A stretch of DNA of 64,000 nucleotides, taken from assembly GCF_009931435.1 (NCBI RefSeq), contig NZ_CP043414.1. The stretch is one strand, 5' to 3'. Made by a program: the position numbers and the translations under genes. How positions within the stretch are numbered: position 1 is the stretch's first letter; the number at the start of each line of letters is the position of its first letter. The notes below the pieces were generated by a model, which was not told the DNA's origin, ran no database searches, and saw only the letters and a list, made by a program, of their open reading frames with translations. Shown piece by piece: positions 9,530 through 19,807 of this stretch. The stretch comes from Escherichia coli (GTDB lineage: Bacteria; Pseudomonadota; Gammaproteobacteria; Enterobacterales; Enterobacteriaceae).

Positions 9530-9690
9530 GCTTGTGTCGGGTGGCGCTGCGCTTACCCGACCTACGGTACATGTAGGCCGGATAAGGCGTAGCCGCCATC
9601 CGGCTTATCAGGCCTACAAAACCATCGTAATACATTGATATTGATTCATTTGTAGGCCGGATAAGGCGCAGCCGCCATCCGGCAAAAACA
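9530..9690. repeat. REP/BIME cluster inside the phn operon, between phnK and phnL
   Basis: GTAGGCCGGATAAGGCG(T/C)AGCCGCCATCCGGC units in inverted orientation. Confidence 0.8.
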
Positions 9691-9703
9691 CGAAGAGGCC
9701 AAA

Positions 9704-10384
9704 ATGATCCGCGTCGAAAACGTCAGTAAAACCTTCATCCTGCACCAACAAAACGGCGTGCGCCTGCCCGTCTTACAACGCGCCTCGCTCACCGTCAACG
9801 CGGGCGAATGCGTGGTGCTCCACGGCCATTCCGGCAGCGGCAAATCAACCCTGCTGCGCTCGCTGTACGCTAACTATCTGCCCGACGAAGGGCAAATTCA
9901 GATCAAACATGGTGACGAGTGGGTAGACCTGGTCACCGCGCCAGCGCGCAAAGTGGTGGAAATCCGCAAAACCACCGTCGGCTGGGTGAGCCAGTTTCTG
10001 CGGGTCATCCCGCGTATTTCGGCGCTGGAAGTGGTAATGCAGCCGCTGCTCGATACCGGCGTTCCGCGTGAAGCCTGCGCCGCTAAAGCCGCCCGTCTGC
10101 TCACCCGCCTGAACGTGCCGGAACGTCTGTGGCACCTGGCGCCATCGACCTTCTCCGGCGGCGAACAGCAGCGCGTCAACATCGCGCGCGGCTTTATCGT
10201 CGATTACCCCATTCTGCTGCTCGACGAACCTACTGCCTCGCTGGACGCCAAAAACAGCGCCGCGGTGGTGGAACTGATCCGCGAAGCTAAAACCCGCGGC
10301 GCAGCCATCGTCGGCATCTTCCACGACGAAGCCGTACGCAATGACGTCGCCGACCGCCTCCACCCAATGGGAGCCTCTGCATGA
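9704..10384 (+). CDS. phnL: ABC-type ATPase PhnL, 226 aa
   Basis: ORF track; Walker [10 protein letters not shown]. Confidence 0.9.
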
Positions 10385-11517
10385 TTATCAATAACGTCAA
10401 ACTGGTGCTGGAAAACGAAGTGGTACACGGTTCGCTGGAGGTGCAGGACGGCGAAATTCGCGCCTTTGCCGAAAGCCAGAGCCGCCTGCCAGAAGCGATG
10501 GACGGCGAAGGTGGCTGGCTGCTGCCGGGGCTGATTGAGCTGCATACCGACAACCTCGATAAATTCTTCACTCCGCGCCCGAAAGTGGACTGGCCTGCCC
10601 ACTCAGCGATGAGCAGCCACGACGCGCTGATGGTGGCGAGCGGCATCACCACGGTGCTGGATGCCGTGGCGATTGGCGACGTGCGCGACGGCGGCGATCG
10701 GCTGGAGAATCTGGAGAAGATGATCAACGCCATCGAAGAGACGCAGAAACGCGGGGTCAACCGCGCCGAGCACCGTCTGCACCTGCGCTGTGAACTGCCG
10801 CATCACACTACGCTGCCGCTGTTTGAAAAACTGGTGCAGCGCGAGCCGGTCACGCTGGTGTCGCTGATGGACCACTCGCCGGGCCAGCGCCAGTTCGCCA
10901 ATCGCGAGAAGTATCGCGAATATTACCAGGGCAAATACTCGCTCACCGATGCGCAGATGCAGCAGTACGAAGAGGAACAACTGGCGCTTGCCGCACGCTG
11001 GTCGCAGCCGAATCGCGAAACCATCGCCGCAATATGCCGCGCGCGACAAATTGCCCTCGCCAGCCACGATGATGCTACGCACGAGCACGTTGCCGAATCC
11101 CACCAGCTTGGCAGCGTAATCGCCGAATTTCCCACCACGTTCGAAGCGGCGGAAGCTTCGCGCAAGCATGGCATGAATGTATTGATGGGCGCGCCGAATA
11201 TTGTGCGCGGCGGTTCGCACTCCGGCAACGTGGCGGCAAGCGAACTGGCACAGCTTGGCCTGCTGGATATCCTCTCTTCCGACTACTACCCCGCCAGCCT
11301 GCTCGATGCGGCATTTCGCGTCGCCGATGACGAGAGCAACCGCTTTACGCTGCCGCAGGCGGTGAAGCTGGTGACTAAAAATCCGGCGCAGGCGCTTAAT
11401 CTTCAGGATCGCGGGGTGATTGGCGAGGGCAAACGCGCCGACCTGGTGCTGGCGCATCGCAAGGGCAACCACATTCATATCGATCACGTCTGGCGTCAGG
11501 GTAAAAGGGTGTTCTGA
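10381..11517 (+). CDS. phnM: Amidohydrolase-family phosphonate metabolism enzyme PhnM, 378 aa
   Basis: ORF track; ATGA overlap with phnL; metal-dependent hydrolase family. Confidence 0.9.
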
Positions 11518-12074
11518 TGACGGGAAAACTGATTTGGTTAATGGGGGCCTCTGGCTCCGGAAAAGACAGTCTGTTGACGGAACTCCGCCAGCGGGAACAA
11601 ACTCAGCTACTGGTAGCGCATCGCTACATCACGCGCGCCGCCAGCGCCGGAAGTGAAAACCATATCGCCCTGAGCGAGCAGGAGTTTTTTACCCGCGCGG
11701 GGCAGAACCTTCTGGCCTTAAGCTGGCACGCCAACGGCCTGTATTATGGCATCGGCGTCGAGATTGACCTCTGGCTACACGCCGGATTCGACGTGGTGGT
11801 CAACGGCTCACGCGCGCATTTGCCGCAGGCGCGGGCGCGCTATCAATCGGCTCTGCTGCCTATCTGTTTACAGGTGTCACCGGAGATCCTGCGCCAGCGT
11901 CTGGAAAACCGTGGTCGTGAAAATGCCAGTGAAATTAACGCCCGGCTGGCGCGCGCTGCCCGCTATACTCCTCAGGATTGTCTTACGCTCAATAATGACG
12001 GCAGCCTGCGCCAGTCGGTCGACAAGCTGCTGACGCTGATTCATCAGAAGGAGAAACACCATGCCTGCTTGTGA
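11517..12074 (+). CDS. phnN: Ribose 1,5-bisphosphate phosphokinase PhnN, 185 aa
   Basis: ORF track; P-loop [14 protein letters not shown] overlap with phnM. Confidence 0.9.
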
Positions 12075-12495
12075 GCTTCGTCCGGCCACGCAGTACGACA
12101 CCGACGCGGTTTACGCGCTGATTTGTGAGCTAAAACAGGCGGAGTTTGACCACCATGCGTTTCGCGTGGGCTTTAACGCCAACCTGCGCGACCCGAACAT
12201 GCGCTACCATCTGGCGCTGCTGGAAGGCGAAGTTGTCGGCATGATCGGCCTGCATTTGCAGTTTCATCTGCATCATGTCAACTGGATCGGCGAAATTCAG
12301 GAACTGGTGGTGATGCCGCAGGCGCGCGGTCTGAACGTCGGCAGTAAATTACTGGCATGGGCCGAAGAAGAAGCCCGCCAGGCCGGGGCCGAAATGACCG
12401 AGCTTTCCACCAACGTCAAGCGCCACGACGCGCACCGTTTCTATCTGCGCGAAGGCTACGAGCAGAGCCACTTCCGCTTCACCAAGGCGCTGTAA
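12061..12495 (+). CDS. phnO: Aminoalkylphosphonate N-acetyltransferase PhnO (GNAT family), 144 aa
   Basis: ORF track; 14-nt overlap with the phnN 3' end. Confidence 0.9.
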
Positions 12496-12496
12496 C

Positions 12497-13255
12497 ATGA
12501 GCCTGACCCTCACACTTACTGGCACTGGCGGCGCACAGGGTGTTCCCGCATGGGGCTGTGAGTGCGCGGCCTGCGCCAGAGCGCGGCGCTCACCGCAGTA
12601 TCGCCGCCAGCCATGCAGCGGCGTCGTGAAGTTTAACGACGCGATCACCCTGATCGACGCCGGACTGCACGATCTCGCCGATCGCTGGTCGCCCGGATCG
12701 TTCCAGCAGTTTTTGCTGACGCACTACCATATGGATCACGTGCAGGGGCTGTTTCCGCTGCGCTGGGGCGTGGGCGATTCGATCCCGGTCTACGGCCCGC
12801 CGGATGAACAGGGCTGCGACGATCTGTTTAAACATCCGGGCCTGCTTGATTTCAGCCACACGGTGGAGCCATTTGTGATGTTTGATTTGCAGGGATTACA
12901 GGTCACGCCGCTGCCGCTCAACCATTCGAAACTCACTTTCGGCTATCTACTGGAAACGGCACATAGCCGGGTGGCGTGGCTGTCTGACACCGCAGGCCTG
13001 CCGGAAAAAACGGTGAAATTTTTATGCAATAATCAGCCACAGGTAATGGTGATTGATTGCTGCCACCCACCGCGCGCGAATTCGCCACGCAATCACTGTG
13101 ATTTAAACACCGTGCTGGCGCTGAATGAAGTTATCCGCTCGCCGTGCGTGGTTCTGACACATATCAGCCATCAGTTTGATGCGTGGCTGATGGAGAACAT
13201 ACTGCCGTCAGGGTTTGAGGCGGGGTTTGATGGGATGGAGATTGGGGTGGAGTGA
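12497..13255 (+). CDS. phnP: Metallo-beta-lactamase-fold phosphodiesterase PhnP, 252 aa
   Basis: ORF track; HxHxDH motif (HYHMDH). Confidence 0.9.
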
Positions 13256-13289
13256 TGGGTGAGGGGCGATGCCTGCTCTAAACTCAACA

Positions 13290-13598
13290 TCACCGCCCAT
13301 ACTCATCTTCCATTCTCCGCTCTTCATCTTCTAGCTGCCGACGCTCCTGATCCAGCTGGCGCTGGCGATCGTCCAGCTGCCTGCGGCGATCTTCATATTG
13401 TCTGCGCCGATCGTCGTTCACTTCACGCTGCCAGCCGTCGTCGCGCCAATCTTCATAGTCTCGCCCACGGTCAGGGTTATAAGCATCGTTAATCGCCTGC
13501 TGAATATTGCCAATGGTGTCGTCGATAATATCGGCCTGGGCCGGAACGGTGGACAGCGTGAGCAGGGTGAATAAAAGAAATAGCGGAAAACGTTTCAT
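13290..13598 (-). CDS. yjdP: Small secreted protein YjdP, 102 aa, with a highly charged R/D/E/Q-rich C-terminal half
   Basis: ORF track; signal-peptide-like N-terminus MKRFPLFLLFTLLTLSTVPAQA, then low-complexity RRRQ/DDRQR repeats. Confidence 0.7.
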   Translation of the reverse strand: MKRFPLFLLFTLLTLSTVPAQADIIDDTIGNIQQAINDAYNPDRGRDYEDWRDDGWQREVNDDRRRQYEDRRRQLDDRQRQLDQERRQLEDEERRMEDEYGR

Positions 13599-13666
13599 TA
13601 GCCAACCTCAAAAAGAAACTCTATCCACATTAGTCATTACTCATCCATGCAAGTAGTGGATGAATC

Positions 13667-13984
13667 TCAATTTTTCCGCTGCTCTATTGCCGTAATCGCC
13701 TCCACGCGTTGTTGATGACGACCGCCTTCGTACTGCGCGCCCAGCCACGCATCCACAATCATTTTTGCCAGTTCGAGGCCAACCACTCGTGAACCAAAAG
13801 CCAGTGCAACTTCACTGGCGTAATGCGGATAATCAGTGCGCTCTGACGACCTGGTTTCTTTATCAATCCCCTCACTCATTGACCATGAATAAAAGGCTGG
13901 CACAGCAACGCAGAATCCTGCGGTGCCAGCGACATGACCGCCCATTGCTCCGGTACGTTTTTTAATAAGAAACACCGGTTGCAT
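13667..13984 (-). pseudogene. rpiB: rpiB-derived remnant: chimeric 105-codon ORF whose C-terminal part matches ribose-5-phosphate isomerase B but which lacks the central third of the protein
   Basis: Translation contains SSERTDYPHYASEVALA joined directly to FGSRVVGLELAKMIVDAWLGAQYEGGRHQQRVEAITAIEQRKN (RpiB-like), preceded by ~40 residues that do not resemble the RpiB N-terminus as I recall it. Confidence 0.6.
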
Positions 13985-14236
13985 TGATTAATTGTGCTCA
14001 GTATTTGCCGAAGTACAATATATATAATAAATATATAAAACACCTCATATTATTTACAGAGATAATAAATTCGCGTACTTTTCCCTCTTCAGCACAAATG
14101 CCTAATAAAATGGCTCGTTCCGCTCACACTTCCACTTATTAAAATCGCAATTTCCCAATTATGATAACGCCAGCTTTAAATGACGTATTTTGCATGGATT
14201 ACATATTTACGACACAAATGATAAATGGAGATTTAT

Positions 14237-16222
14237 ATGAATAACTCTCGGTTATTCCGTTTGAGCAGGATTGTTATTGCGTTAACTGCCGCCAGCGGCA
14301 TGATGGTAAATACCGCTCACGCAACAGATGAAGCGAAAGCCGCCACTCAATATACCCAACAGGTTAATCAGAATTACGCCAAATCATTACCGTTTAGCGA
14401 TCGTCAGGATTTTGACGATGCCCAGCGCGGATTTATCGCCCCGCTGCTGGATGAAGGTATTCTGCGCGATGCGAATGGCAAAGTTTACTACCGCGCGAAT
14501 GATTACAAATTTGATATTAATGCCGCTGCGCCGGAAACCGTAAACCCCAGCCTGTGGCGTCAGTCGCAGATCAACGGCATTTCTGGTCTGTTCAAAGTCA
14601 CCGATAAAATGTATCAGGTGCGCGGCCAGGATATCTCTAACATTACATTCGTTGAGGGCGAGAAAGGCATTATTGTTATCGACCCACTGGTGACGCCGCC
14701 TGCCGCAAAAGCCGCACTTGACCTTTACTTCCAGCATCGTCCGCAAAAACCGATTGTTGCTGTTATTTACACCCACAGCCACGCCGACCATTATGGCGGT
14801 GTGAAAGGCATTATCTCTGAAGCGGATGTTAAATCTGGCAAAGTGCAGGTGATCGCTCCGGCAGGCTTTATGGACGAAGCCATCAGCGAAAACGTGCTGG
14901 CGGGTAACATCATGAGCCGCCGTGCGCTCTACTCTTACGGTCTGTTACTGCCGCACAACGCGCAAGGCAACGTGGGCAACGGCCTGGGCGTGACGCTGGC
15001 AACGGGCGACCCGAGCATTATTGCGCCAACCAAAACGATTGTCAGAACTGGCGAGAAGATGATTATCGACGGCCTGGAGTTTGACTTCCTGATGACTCCG
15101 GGTAGCGAAGCGCCAGCCGAAATGCACTTCTATATTCCGGCCCTGAAAGCCCTGTGTACCGCCGAAAACGCCACGCATACCCTGCACAACTTCTACACCC
15201 TGCGCGGCGCGAAAACCCGCGATACCAGCAAGTGGACAGAGTATCTGAACGAAACGCTGGATATGTGGGGTAACGACGCGGAAGTACTGTTTATGCCGCA
15301 CACCTGGCCGGTCTGGGGCAATAAGCATATCAATGATTATATTGGTAAATATCGCGATACTATCAAATACATTCACGACCAGACCCTGCACCTGGCGAAC
15401 CAGGGTTACACCATGAATGAAATTGGCGACATGATTAAGCTGCCACCTGCGCTTGCCAATAACTGGGCCAGCCGCGGCTATTACGGTTCTGTTAGCCACA
15501 ACGCCCGTGCAGTGTATAACTTCTATCTCGGCTATTATGACGGCAATCCAGCTAACCTACATCCGTACGGTCAGGTGGAGATGGGCAAACGTTACGTGAA
15601 AGCGCTGGGCGGTTCCGCCCGTGTCATCAACCTGGCGCAAGAAGCGAACAAGCAAGGGGATTACCGCTGGTCAGCAGAGTTGCTGAAACAGGTGATTGCC
15701 GCCAATCCGGGTGACCAGGTGGCGAAGAATCTGCAAGCGAATAACTTTGAACAGCTGGGCTATCAGGCCGAGTCCGCCACCTGGCGCGGTTTCTACCTGA
15801 CCGGCGCAAAAGAGCTGCGCGAAGGGGTGCATAAGTTCAGCCACGGCACCACGGGTTCTCCGGACACCCTTCGCGGGATGTCGGTCGAAATGCTGTTCGA
15901 CTTTATGGCCGTTCGCCTCGATAGCGCGAAAGCCGCAGGTAAGAATATCAGCCTGAACTTCAATATGAGCAACGGCGATAACCTCAACCTGACGCTGAAC
16001 GATAGCGTGCTTAACTACCGTAAAACGCTGCAACCTGAAGCCAACGCCTCTTTCTACATCAGCCGTGAAGATCTTCACGCCGTGCTGACCGGACAAGCCA
16101 AAATGGCGGATCTGGTAAAAGCGAAGAAAGCCAAAATTATTGGCAATGGCGCGAAACTGGAAGAAATTATTGCCTGTCTGGATAATTTCGATTTGTGGGT
16201 GAATATCGTAACCCCAAATTAA
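14237..16222 (+). CDS. yjcS: Metallo-beta-lactamase-fold alkyl/aryl-sulfatase family protein YjcS, 661 aa
   Basis: ORF track 14225..16222; start placed at ATG 14237 ([21 protein letters not shown], signal peptide); HSHADH motif. Confidence 0.85.
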
Positions 16223-16231
16223 TGCCACTCA

Positions 16232-16268
16232 CTTTTGGGGGCGCTTAAGCCCCCAAAAGTATTTATTT
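16232..16268 (+). terminator. Rho-independent terminator downstream of yjcS
   Basis: CTTTTGGGGGC-GCTTAA-GCCCCCAAAAG hairpin followed by a T-rich run. Confidence 0.7.
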
Positions 16269-16430
16269 TAAAAATACATACAACCAATTAATACATAAAA
16301 TATATAAGTTATGAATGCGGTGGCTGAATAAAGCTATTTTTATTCATCGAGAAAATAGCCATACTGACGCCTTCAATGGATATTGATATTCACTACAGAT
16401 ATTGTTCGCAGCAGACAGGATGTATTTAAT

Positions 16431-16706
16431 ATGCCAACAGTTCTCTCTCGCATGGCGATGCAACTCAAAAAAACAGCCTGGATAATTCCCGTCTTCATGG
16501 TTTCGGGATGCTCATTATCTCCGGCAATCCCGGTGATCGGCGCTTATTATCCCAGCTGGTTTTTCTGCGCCATTGCCAGCCTTATTTTGACGCTCATCAC
16601 GAGGCGAATTATTCAGCGGGCAAATATCAATCTGGCATTTGTCGGAATTATTTATACCGCCCTTTTTGCTCTCTACGCCATGCTGTTCTGGCTGGCATTT
16701 TTCTAA
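16431..16706 (+). CDS. ytcA: Small membrane lipoprotein YtcA, 91 aa
   Basis: ORF track frame 16383..16706; start at ATG 16431 (MPTVLSRMAMQLKKTAWIIPVFMVSGCS, lipobox). Confidence 0.75.
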   Translation: MPTVLSRMAMQLKKTAWIIPVFMVSGCSLSPAIPVIGAYYPSWFFCAIASLILTLITRRIIQRANINLAFVGIIYTALFALYAMLFWLAFF

Positions 16707-16724
16707 TCTATTTGAGACGCGCTC

Positions 16725-17756
16725 ATGGAAAGTACGCCGAAAAAAGCTCCTCGCAGTAAATTCCCTGCTCTGTTAGTGGTTGCGTTGGCGCTGGTTGCCC
16801 TTGTTTTCGTTATCTGGCGCGTAGACAGTGCGCCATCAACTAATGACGCCTACGCGTCAGCAGATACCATTGATGTGGTGCCGGAAGTCAGCGGTCGCAT
16901 TGTAGAACTGGCGGTCACCGACAACCAGGCGGTGAAACAGGGCGATTTGCTGTTCCGCATCGACTCGCGCCCGTACGAAGCCAATCTGGCGAAAGCCGAA
17001 GCCTCCCTCGCGGCGCTGGATAAGCAAATTATGCTCACCCAGCGTAGCGTTGACGCACAACAGTTTGGTGCCGACTCGGTTAATGCCACGGTAGAAAAAG
17101 CCCGTGCCGCCGCGAAACAGGCCAGTGATACATTACGCCGCACCGAGCCATTACTGAAAGAAGGTTTCGTCTCAGCGGAAGACGTTGACCGTGCAAGAAC
17201 GGCGCAGCGCGCCGCAGAAGCAGATCTTAATGCCGTATTGTTGCAGGCGCAGTCAGCCGCCAGCGCCGTCAGCGGCGTGGATGCGCTGGTGGCGCAACGT
17301 GCGGCAGTGGAAGCGGATATTGCGTTGACGAAACTGCATCTGGAAATGGCGACCGTTCGCGCGCCGTTTGATGGCCGAGTCATTTCCCTCAAAACCTCGG
17401 TTGGGCAATTTGCTTCTGCCATGCGCCCTATTTTCACCCTAATCGACACTCGTCACTGGTACGTGATCGCCAACTTCCGCGAAACCGATCTGAAAAATAT
17501 TCGCTCGGGTACACCCGCAACGATTCGCCTGATGAGCGACAGCGGCAAAACCTTCGAGGGTAAAGTGGATTCGATTGGCTACGGCGTGCTACCGGATGAC
17601 GGCGGTCTGGTGCTGGGCGGCCTGCCGAAAGTGTCTCGTTCTATTAACTGGGTCCGCGTTGCCCAGCGTTTTCCGGTCAAAATCATGGTTGAAAAACCTG
17701 ACCCGGAAATGTTCCGCATCGGCGCTTCGGCAGTCGCTAATCTTGAGCCGCAATAA
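16725..17756 (+). CDS. mdtN: Multidrug efflux membrane-fusion protein MdtN, 343 aa
   Basis: ORF track; HlyD/EmrA-type periplasmic adaptor features. Confidence 0.9.
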   Translation: MESTPKKAPRSKFPALLVVALALVALVFVIWRVDSAPSTNDAYASADTIDVVPEVSGRIVELAVTDNQAVKQGDLLFRIDSRPYEANLAKAEASLAALDKQIMLTQRSVDAQQFGADSVNATVEKARAAAKQASDTLRRTEPLLKEGFVSAEDVDRARTAQRAAEADLNAVLLQAQSAASAVSGVDALVAQRAAVEADIALTKLHLEMATVRAPFDGRVISLKTSVGQFASAMRPIFTLIDTRHWYVIANFRETDLKNIRSGTPATIRLMSDSGKTFEGKVDSIGYGVLPDDGGLVLGGLPKVSRSINWVRVAQRFPVKIMVEKPDPEMFRIGASAVANLEPQ

Positions 17757-19807
17757 TGAGCGCGCTCAACTCCCTGCCATTACCGGTGGTCAGGCTGCTG
17801 GCGTTCTTTCATGAAGAGTTAAGCGAGCGGCGACCAGGCCGCGTGCCGCAGACTATGCAACTCTGGGTAGGCTGCTTGCTGGTGATTCTGATCTCGATGA
17901 CTTTTGAGATCCCTTTTGTGGCGTTATCACTGGCAGTGCTGTTTTACGGTATTCAGTCGAACGCGTTTTACACCAAATTTGTCGCGATCTTGTTTGTGGT
18001 CGCCACGATGCTGGAAATCGCCAGCCTGTTTTTGATCTACAAATGGTCATATGGCGAACCGTTGATCCGATTGATCATTGCCGGACCGATCCTGATGGGC
18101 TGTATGTTTTTGATGCGCACCCATCGGTTGGGGCTGGTCTTTTTCGCCGTCGCCATTGTCGCTATTTACGGGCAAACCTTCCCCGCCATGCTCGACTATC
18201 CGGAAGTGGTCGTGCGCTTAACGCTGTGGTGTATCGTTGTCGGCCTCTACCCGACGTTATTGATGACGTTAATCGGCGTGCTGTGGTTTCCCAGCCGTGC
18301 TATCACGCAGATGCATCAGGTGCTTAATGATCGGCTTGATGATGCCATTAGCCACCTGACGGACAGCCTCGCACCGCTACCCGAAACGCGGATTGAAAGA
18401 GAGGCGCTGGCGCTGCAAAAACTCAATGTCTTTTGCCTCGCGGACGATGCCAACTGGCGAACTCAGAGCGCATGGTGGCAAAGCTGCGTGGCAACGGTAA
18501 CCTACATTTACTCGACGCTGAATCGCTACGATCCCACCTCTTTTGCTGATTCTCAGGCAATTATTGAATTTCGGCAAAAATTAGCCTCAGAAATCAACAA
18601 ACTGCAGCATGCCATTGCCGAAGGTCAGCGCTGGCAAAGCGACTGGCGGATCACTGAAAGTGAAGCGATGGCGGCACGGGAATGTAACCTGGAGAATATC
18701 TGCCAGACATTGTTGCAACTGGGTCAGATGGACCCAAATACGCCGCCAACGCCCGCCGCCAAACCGCCATCAATGGTCGCCGATGCTTTTACCAATCCAG
18801 ACTATATGCGCTACGCGGTAAAAACGCTGCTCGCCTGTTTGATCTGTTACACCTTCTACAGCGGCGTGGACTGGGAAGGCATTCACACCTGTATGCTGAC
18901 CTGCGTGATCGTCGCTAACCCCAATGTCGGTTCGTCGTACCAGAAGATGGTGTTGCGTTTTGGCGGGGCTTTTTCCGGCGCAATTCTGGCGCTGTTATTC
19001 ACGCTACTGGTCATGCCCTGGCTGGACAATATTGTCGAATTGCTATTTGTGCTGGCACCGATTTTCCTGTTAGGCGCATGGATTGCCACCAGCTCTGAAC
19101 GCTCTTCTTATATCGGCACACAGATGGTGGTCACCTTCGCGCTCGCCACGCTCGAAAACGTTTTTGGCCCGGTGTACGACCTGGTGGAAATTCGCGATCG
19201 CGCCCTGGGTATCATCATTGGTACCGTGGTGTCCGCGGTGATTTACACCTTTGTCTGGCCTGAAAGTGAAGCGCGCACACTGCCGCAAAAACTGGCTGGC
19301 GCGCTGGGTATGTTGAGTAAAGTAATGCGGATCCCACGCCAGCAGGAAGTCACGGCTCTGCGCACTTATCTGCAAATTCGTATAGGTCTGCATGCGGCGT
19401 TTAATGCCTGTGAAGAGATGTGCCAACGCGTGGCGCTGGAGCGTCAACTGGACAGCGAAGAACGCGCGTTACTGATTGAACGTTCGCAAACGGTTATTCG
19501 TCAGGGCCGCGATATTCTTCACGCCTGGGATGCAACCTGGAACTCGGCGCAGGCGCTGGATAACGCACTACAGCCGGACAGAGCAGGCCTGTTTGCCGAC
19601 GCACTGGAGAAATACGCCGCCGGCCTGGCAAGCGCATTCAGTCGTTCTCCTCAAATAACGCTTGAAGAAACACCCGCCTCGCAGGCCATTCTGCCGACCT
19701 TATTAAAACAGGAGCAACACGTCTGCCAGCTTTTCGCCCGCTTGCCAGACTGGACAGCCCCGGCATTAACGCCCGCCACGGAACAGGCACAAGGAGCCAC
19801 GCAATGA
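17756..19807 (+). CDS. mdtO: Multidrug efflux inner-membrane protein MdtO (aromatic acid exporter family), 683 aa
   Basis: ORF track; overlaps the mdtN stop. Confidence 0.9.
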   Translation: MSALNSLPLPVVRLLAFFHEELSERRPGRVPQTMQLWVGCLLVILISMTFEIPFVALSLAVLFYGIQSNAFYTKFVAILFVVATMLEIASLFLIYKWSYGEPLIRLIIAGPILMGCMFLMRTHRLGLVFFAVAIVAIYGQTFPAMLDYPEVVVRLTLWCIVVGLYPTLLMTLIGVLWFPSRAITQMHQVLNDRLDDAISHLTDSLAPLPETRIEREALALQKLNVFCLADDANWRTQSAWWQSCVATVTYIYSTLNRYDPTSFADSQAIIEFRQKLASEINKLQHAIAEGQRWQSDWRITESEAMAARECNLENICQTLLQLGQMDPNTPPTPAAKPPSMVADAFTNPDYMRYAVKTLLACLICYTFYSGVDWEGIHTCMLTCVIVANPNVGSSYQKMVLRFGGAFSGAILALLFTLLVMPWLDNIVELLFVLAPIFLLGAWIATSSERSSYIGTQMVVTFALATLENVFGPVYDLVEIRDRALGIIIGTVVSAVIYTFVWPESEARTLPQKLAGALGMLSKVMRIPRQQEVTALRTYLQIRIGLHAAFNACEEMCQRVALERQLDSEERALLIERSQTVIRQGRDILHAWDATWNSAQALDNALQPDRAGLFADALEKYAAGLASAFSRSPQITLEETPASQAILPTLLKQEQHVCQLFARLPDWTAPALTPATEQAQGATQ

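Follow-up and report, generated by a model that had tools for sequence, protein, structure and literature searches.

In Escherichia coli K-12 the genes yjdP and yjcS are separated by 7,270 bp, which hold rpiB on the minus strand and then alsR, alsB, alsA, alsC, alsE and alsK on the plus strand; a sequence-only reading of the DNA described here had assumed this order, and it agrees with the K-12 genome annotation. In E. coli RpiB, Cys66 is the catalytic base and His99 an active-site residue (PMC4783025, PMC11585597). The genome paper of enteroaggregative E. coli (EAEC) 042 reported that the als operon was absent and that D-allose use was defective in Biolog assays; it described a 'complete absence' of rpiB and did not mention a remnant (PMC2808357). 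E. coli W is reported to be without alsBACEK and unable to catabolise allose (PMC3032704). alsBACEK is also reported absent from strain PCN033, for which loss of allose use was predicted (PMC4578781). Loss of als is already known, both as annotation and as phenotype. Genomes of the O157:H7 type use the same yjdP-yjcS slot for a different cargo of 9.2 kb, which is without rpiB or als sequence and encodes a hybrid sensor kinase, a sugar ABC transporter, a D-lyxose/D-mannose isomerase, a ketose-bisphosphate aldolase, a kinase and a response regulator.

The window analysed here is a stretch of 64,000 nucleotides from E. coli. Its yjdP-yjcS interval lies at the same site as the K-12 rpiB/alsRBACEK locus, with phnP-yjdP on the left and yjcS-ytcA-mdtNOP on the right, and its remnant pieces line up, in the K-12 order, with rpiB codons 29-53, rpiB codons 107-149 and the stop and terminal hairpin of alsK. 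Unlike the K-12 locus, it is without about 6.55 kb plus a further 159 bp, contains 78 extra bp, and has no alsR, alsB, alsA, alsC, alsE or alsK and no RpiB catalytic core. Compared with the als-negative allele of EAEC 042, PCN033 and others, it is identical in its junctions, its 638 bp and its 105-codon open reading frame (ORF), and differs by point substitutions only. Against the O157:H7-type island, homology to the window breaks off where yjdP has its 5' end and starts again at 14017. The interval is very probably the deletion scar of a divergent rpiB/alsRBACEK cassette, made by two deletions, with an inactive remnant and with an old allele of single origin.

Layout of the interval and its K-12 counterpart

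In the window, phnM-N-O-P (plus strand) come first, and after them yjdP (minus strand), yjcS, ytcA and mdtN-O-P. The gap between the yjdP start (13598) and the yjcS ATG (14237) measured 638 bp (13599-14236), where about 640 bp had been estimated, and the 105-codon ORF noticed there was found at 13667-13984 on the minus strand as the sole sizeable ORF of the interval. The features, with window coordinates, were as follows.

13290-13598, minus strand: yjdP, DDRRRQL-repeat protein, left flank; ORF of 102 aa, annotated yjdP in matching genomes.
13599-13666, no strand: yjdP-rpiB spacer, kept as in als+ strains; colinear with K-12 locus 11364-11431, one mismatch.
13667-13984, minus strand: chimeric 105-codon ORF, the rpiB remnant; in the ORF list, and named by PGAP 'RpiB/LacA/LacB family sugar-phosphate isomerase', WP_001183291.1.
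13667-13804, minus strand: rpiB 3' fragment, codons 107-149 and stop (ORF codons 63-105), with the shared CTGGCT repeat; 98.6% nucleotide identity to K-12.
13795-13804, minus strand: junction of the internal 159-bp in-frame deletion (RpiB 54-106), in the imperfect direct repeat CTGGCT(G/T)TTG; both K-12 copies align here.
13805-13874, minus strand: rpiB middle fragment, codons ~29-51 (ORF codons ~38-60), codons 52-53 lying in the repeat at 13795-13804; 89% identity to K-12, 93% to a divergent als+ E. coli locus (L009).
13875-13882, no strand: junction of the large deletion (~6.55 kb), at which rpiB codon ~28 meets the final alsK codons; 8 bp of ambiguous origin or microhomology.
13883-13934, plus strand: alsK tail, comprising the last 3 coding bases, the TGA stop and a G+C-rich hairpin (CTGGCAC...GTGCCAG), with TTTTATT after it on the minus strand; 79% identity to K-12, E 1e-6.
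13935-14012, no strand: allele-specific 78-bp segment, giving the ATG and codons 1-17 of the ORF; absent from als+ loci and found in remnant-allele genomes only.
14013-14236, plus strand: yjcS upstream region, common to all allele classes; the als+, O157-island and phn-deleted loci become homologous again at 14013-14017.
14237-16222, plus strand: yjcS, alkyl sulfatase, right flank; 98.6% amino acid identity to K-12 YjcS.

When the window was aligned to K-12 with blastn, the region was resolved into four pieces. Window 13257-13804 matched yjdP and the 3' end of rpiB (98.6% in the rpiB part), 13795-13874 matched K-12 locus 11719-11798 in mid-rpiB (89%), 13883-13934 matched K-12 locus 18356-18407 at the alsK end and hairpin (79%, E 1e-6), and from 14013 onward the yjcS upstream region was matched at 94%. 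The corresponding offsets amounted to 159 bp lost within rpiB, a net 6,549 bp lost from rpiB to the tail of alsK, and 77 bp gained ahead of the yjcS upstream region. In tblastn searches with K-12 AlsR, AlsB, AlsA, AlsC, AlsE and AlsK, no als gene was found in the 64-kb window, where the sole matches were weak, generic ABC-ATPase likenesses in phn genes and uvrA; the full set of alsR, alsB, alsA, alsC, alsE and alsK expected of a D-allose regulon was not present within the window. In the left flank, yjdP had 93% nucleotide identity to K-12 yjdP, with a 21-bp gap that corresponds to one repeat unit. The YjdP repeat number differed by strain, and the protein length rose from 102 aa (window) through 109 aa (K-12, O157 and O26) and 116 aa (2017-02-2CC) to 118 aa (EC958).

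The chimeric reading frame

ORF codons 38-105 consisted of rpiB codons 29-53 fused in frame to codons 107-149. The sequence-only reading had assigned the C-terminal ~45 residues to RpiB, and ORF residues 63-105 indeed corresponded to RpiB 107-149; with the shared LA dipeptide the match covered 45 residues, of which 44 were identical. The short upstream block that it had also assigned to RpiB, SSERTDYPHYAS, turned out to belong to a longer match, in which remnant residues 38-62 correspond to RpiB 29-53. The missing central part of RpiB amounted to exactly 53 codons (159 bp, RpiB 54-106), lost in frame. K-12 rpiB carries the two repeat copies as CTG GCT GTT G (codons 52-55) and CTG GCT TTT G (codons 105-108), and when codons 54-106 were removed from K-12 rpiB in a reconstruction, the remnant frame was reproduced, with 10 of 207 nt differing over ORF codons 38-105. 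A PDB search aligned two separate stretches of the ORF to E. coli RpiB (1NN4/2VVR). The Pfam model PF02502 (~138 positions) was matched significantly solely at model positions 102-138 (E 6e-9), with a non-significant stretch at 27-49 (E 1.7); model positions 1-26 and 50-101 had no counterpart in the 105-codon ORF. Cys66 and His99 both fall inside the deleted codons 54-106, and in place of RpiB residues 1-28 the ORF has 37 residues of unrelated sequence. The remnant has neither a complete PF02502 domain, nor Cys66 and His99, nor the N-terminal strand with Asp9 and His10. With Cys66, His99 and residues 1-28 gone, the predicted product cannot isomerise either ribose-5-phosphate or allose-6-phosphate.

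The N-terminal ~40 residues had been described as unlike RpiB, and PDB and Pfam searches likewise gave no RpiB similarity for residues 1-37. A proposed comparison of these codons with alsK was borne out for the alsK 3' flank, which they match in antisense, and failed for the alsK coding sequence, of which the last 6 nt alone are included. ORF codons ~18-35 run antisense through the alsK stop and the downstream hairpin; when L009, the divergent als+ locus, is taken for comparison, the match to the alsK tail may reach further left, to ~13866. The 37 N-terminal codons were rejected as a piece of alsK or of another gene, since the match was limited to the alsK 3' flank and the final 6 nt of the gene, on the opposite strand, and the PDB and Pfam searches were blank. 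The 78-bp segment had no counterpart in four als+ loci (K-12, ST131 EC958, E. whittamii and L009) and was absent from the O157 island and from the Escherichia sp. MOD1-EC7003, Kluyvera, Salmonella arizonae and Pluralibacter loci. By sensitive blastn the segment was single-copy in every E. coli genome that had it, and all of these were remnant carriers.

The alsK hairpin folded in both alleles, at -22 to -24 kcal/mol. On the coding strand of the N-terminal region of the ORF this gave a stable hairpin (-24 kcal/mol, z -2.9) and then CCUUUUAUU. The outermost stem pair of the hairpin at 13897-13930 was changed on both sides, from T...A in K-12 to C...G here. Together with the minus-strand T-tract, this hairpin may serve as a terminator for leftward transcription from the yjcS upstream region. 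A promoter and terminator scan of 13500-14300 found no promoter-like site on either strand, the scan being insensitive and also missing the yjcS promoter; the one hairpin that it reported lay inside the rpiB fragment.

Distribution and origin of the allele

The survey covered 5,426 complete E. coli genomes. The remnant junction, probed with window 13780-14030 and counted when at least 80% of the probe was covered, was present in 1,569 (~29%). A K-12 als cassette probe had a match of any length in 3,405 genomes and at least 80% coverage in 3,368, and the O157:H7-type island occupied the slot in 411-422. These classes sum to ~5,385, within the total of 5,426, which is consistent with three mutually exclusive allele classes and a few tens of other states besides. 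The arrangement is a shared old allele and no peculiarity of a single genome. Of the ~1,570 matches to the remnant-specific sequence, one lay on a record with a plasmid label.

Seven carriers were compared: the window, 2017-02-2CC, O26:H11 FWSEC0001, D5, PCN033, 2013C-4282 and EAEC 042. Carriers here include O26:H11, O111:H8, EAEC 042 and PCN033. Each had exactly 638 bp and an intact 318-bp ORF, with 4-20 differing sites (up to 3.1%); relative to the window, 5-15 of the 638 bp were substituted (97-99% identity). EAEC 042 carries the order yjcS, 318-bp remnant (WP_001183290.1) and yjdP, and differs from the window at 13 of 638 positions. The loss of the als operon and of a functional rpiB that had been read from the sequence is upheld: both are absent in the window through deletion, and EAEC 042, with the same allele, is published as als-negative and allose-defective. 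The exact protein of the window, WP_001183291.1, was found on 521 contigs. E. coli 1919D3 has a full-length rpiB (L006, 8714-9163) in a K-12-like als+ locus, with a patch of ~60 bp that contains the remnant-type changes G34D, W36R and Q49E; judged by its sequence, the patch resembles a short gene-conversion tract whose donor had the remnant. Partial junction matches of the 1919D3 kind occurred in eight genomes.

Fragments from both ends of the cassette were colinear with K-12, in their original orientation and between conserved flanks. The ancestral deletion suggested from the sequence holds up, as what is left, two rpiB pieces and the tail and hairpin of alsK in the order of the K-12 cassette, implies an als+ ancestor. 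The ancestor would have had a divergent rpiB/alsRBACEK cassette between yjdP and yjcS in a K-12-like layout. One deletion of ~6.55 kb would have run from rpiB codon ~28 through alsR, alsB, alsA, alsC and alsE to the last alsK codons, and another would have removed 159 bp in rpiB (codons 54-106) between the CTGGCT(G/T)TTG copies, for which slippage or illegitimate recombination would be the simplest cause. The leftover rpiB pieces would by chance have come into frame with an upstream ATG in allele-specific DNA, giving the 105-codon ORF that pipelines call a gene. A carrier cell would neither take up nor catabolise D-allose, would be without RpiB, and would depend on RpiA to isomerise ribose-5-phosphate. 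We infer the order and mechanism of the two deletions, the ORF being without expression or function, and the reliance on RpiA. The junctions were identical in all seven carriers, without indels; the same 638 bp and junctions in such diverged carriers indicate that both deletions occurred once, long ago. This account at the level of the junctions, with its two deletions, its chimeric ORF kept in frame and its codons antisense to the alsK flank, may be new to the literature, but is routine.

A scan for YjcS in species-representative genomes showed phnP-(yjdP)-yjcS with nothing between in Kluyvera georgiana, Kluyvera genomosp. 3 and Salmonella enterica subsp. arizonae. The full rpiB-als cassette was present in E. 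whittamii and in one divergent E. coli (L009). Since the outgroup sites are empty, the cassette was gained at some point within the Escherichia lineage; since the window has ordered rpiB and alsK fragments, it is not an empty ancestral site, and its allele is a later internal deletion. Divergence from K-12 was uneven, with 89% identity in the rpiB middle fragment and 79% in the alsK tail vs 98.6% in the rpiB 3' fragment. That the inner fragments are far more diverged than the rpiB 3' end suggests either that the donor cassette was not K-12-like or that recombination later homogenised the yjdP end.

The empty outgroup sites could also be taken to mean that the short interval is ancestral and that the als cassette was inserted in K-12-type strains beside a pre-existing short gene. 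We regard this as extremely unlikely, because two non-contiguous rpiB pieces in the right order and frame, together with the stop and hairpin of alsK at the other extreme, form a deletion pattern, and the outgroup sites contain no rpiB-like sequence. Chance similarity is untenable, with E-values of 1e-24 for the rpiB-like segment, 1e-6 for the alsK-like segment and 8e-33 for the protein match. An assembly or sequencing artefact, such as a collapsed contig join, has practically no probability, being contradicted by the same 638-bp architecture in 1,569 independently finished genomes. More can be said for a real, expressed gene, in which the chimeric ORF would encode an RpiB-derived, non-catalytic small protein selected in lineages that lost als. 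The ORF was exactly 318 bp and free of stops and frameshifts in 7/7 carriers despite up to 3% divergence, the internal rpiB deletion is in frame, and PGAP annotates a CDS and not a pseudogene. The distinct changes were 6 non-synonymous to 5 synonymous, below the neutral ratio of ~3:1, but this count is not significant and has no power (11 distinct substitutions in seven carriers). However, the segment with Cys66 and His99 and the N-terminal 28 RpiB residues are lost, the 37 N-terminal codons are antisense to the alsK flank and carry a stable hairpin and then a T-tract on the coding strand, and no Shine-Dalgarno motif was evident before the ATG on inspection of the sequence. Substitution density in the ORF (2.2%) was close to that in adjacent non-coding DNA (2.4%), and the 90% cluster of WP_001183291.1 includes shorter versions without the first 13 or 35 codons, starting at Met14 (92 aa, 21 contigs) and Met36 (70 aa, 130 contigs). 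We therefore consider a working gene very unlikely and retain the inactive deletion scar.

The slot and its neighbourhood

At least four states of the slot were seen: the als/rpiB cassette, the remnant, the O157-type island with its lyxose, ABC transporter and two-component genes, and a deletion of phn, yjdP and als in Escherichia sp. MOD1-EC7003. In the last, yjdN adjoins yjcS, and the phn operon, yjdP and als are all missing. All four states resumed window homology within the same 5 bp (14013-14017), directly before GTACAATATATATAATAAA (loci L005, 514-9664, and L007, 9779). A Pluralibacter metagenome-assembled genome (L027, 942-9669) had, from yjdP to yjcS, an rpiB-like gene, a 1,478-aa autotransporter, a ketose-bisphosphate aldolase and a kinase; its aldolase and kinase resembled the distal genes of the O157-type island.

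Across phnL-phnP, yjcS and mdtN (~9650-17800), nucleotide identity was 92-97% among the window, K-12, O157:H7, 042 and 2017-02-2CC. Such values are below the usual within-species identity for E. coli. Around the slot itself the window was 92-96% identical to K-12, and K-12, 042, O157 and 2017-02-2CC were equally diverged from one another there. An origin of the window outside E. coli, which its low identity to K-12 had brought to mind, was rejected on this ground and because the 521 contigs with its exact remnant protein are from E. coli. Window 14237-36000 had a best match of 98.5% among the 5,426 complete genomes. The divergent phn-mdtN region suggests, on sequence comparison, old, recombining haplotypes around a variable site. 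The slot might further be a long-lived, multi-allelic exchange site for sugar cassettes, at which the scar allele is kept by selection and not by drift, a proposal that we consider improbable. If it were true, there would be selection against allose uptake or RpiB, or for the 105-aa chimeric product, and the raised divergence of phn-mdtN (92-97%) would reflect old linked haplotypes.

Read as a deletion scar, the allele accounts for a large minority of E. coli without D-allose use and without a second ribose-5-phosphate isomerase; it is otherwise ordinary pan-genome variation. The 105-aa proteins under WP_0011832xx named 'RpiB/LacA/LacB family sugar-phosphate isomerase' are non-catalytic remnants and should be given no isomerase role when pathways are inferred. 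The finding bears on metabolic models, on the essentiality of rpiA in carriers and on the metabolism of rare sugars (allose/allulose) by gut E. coli.
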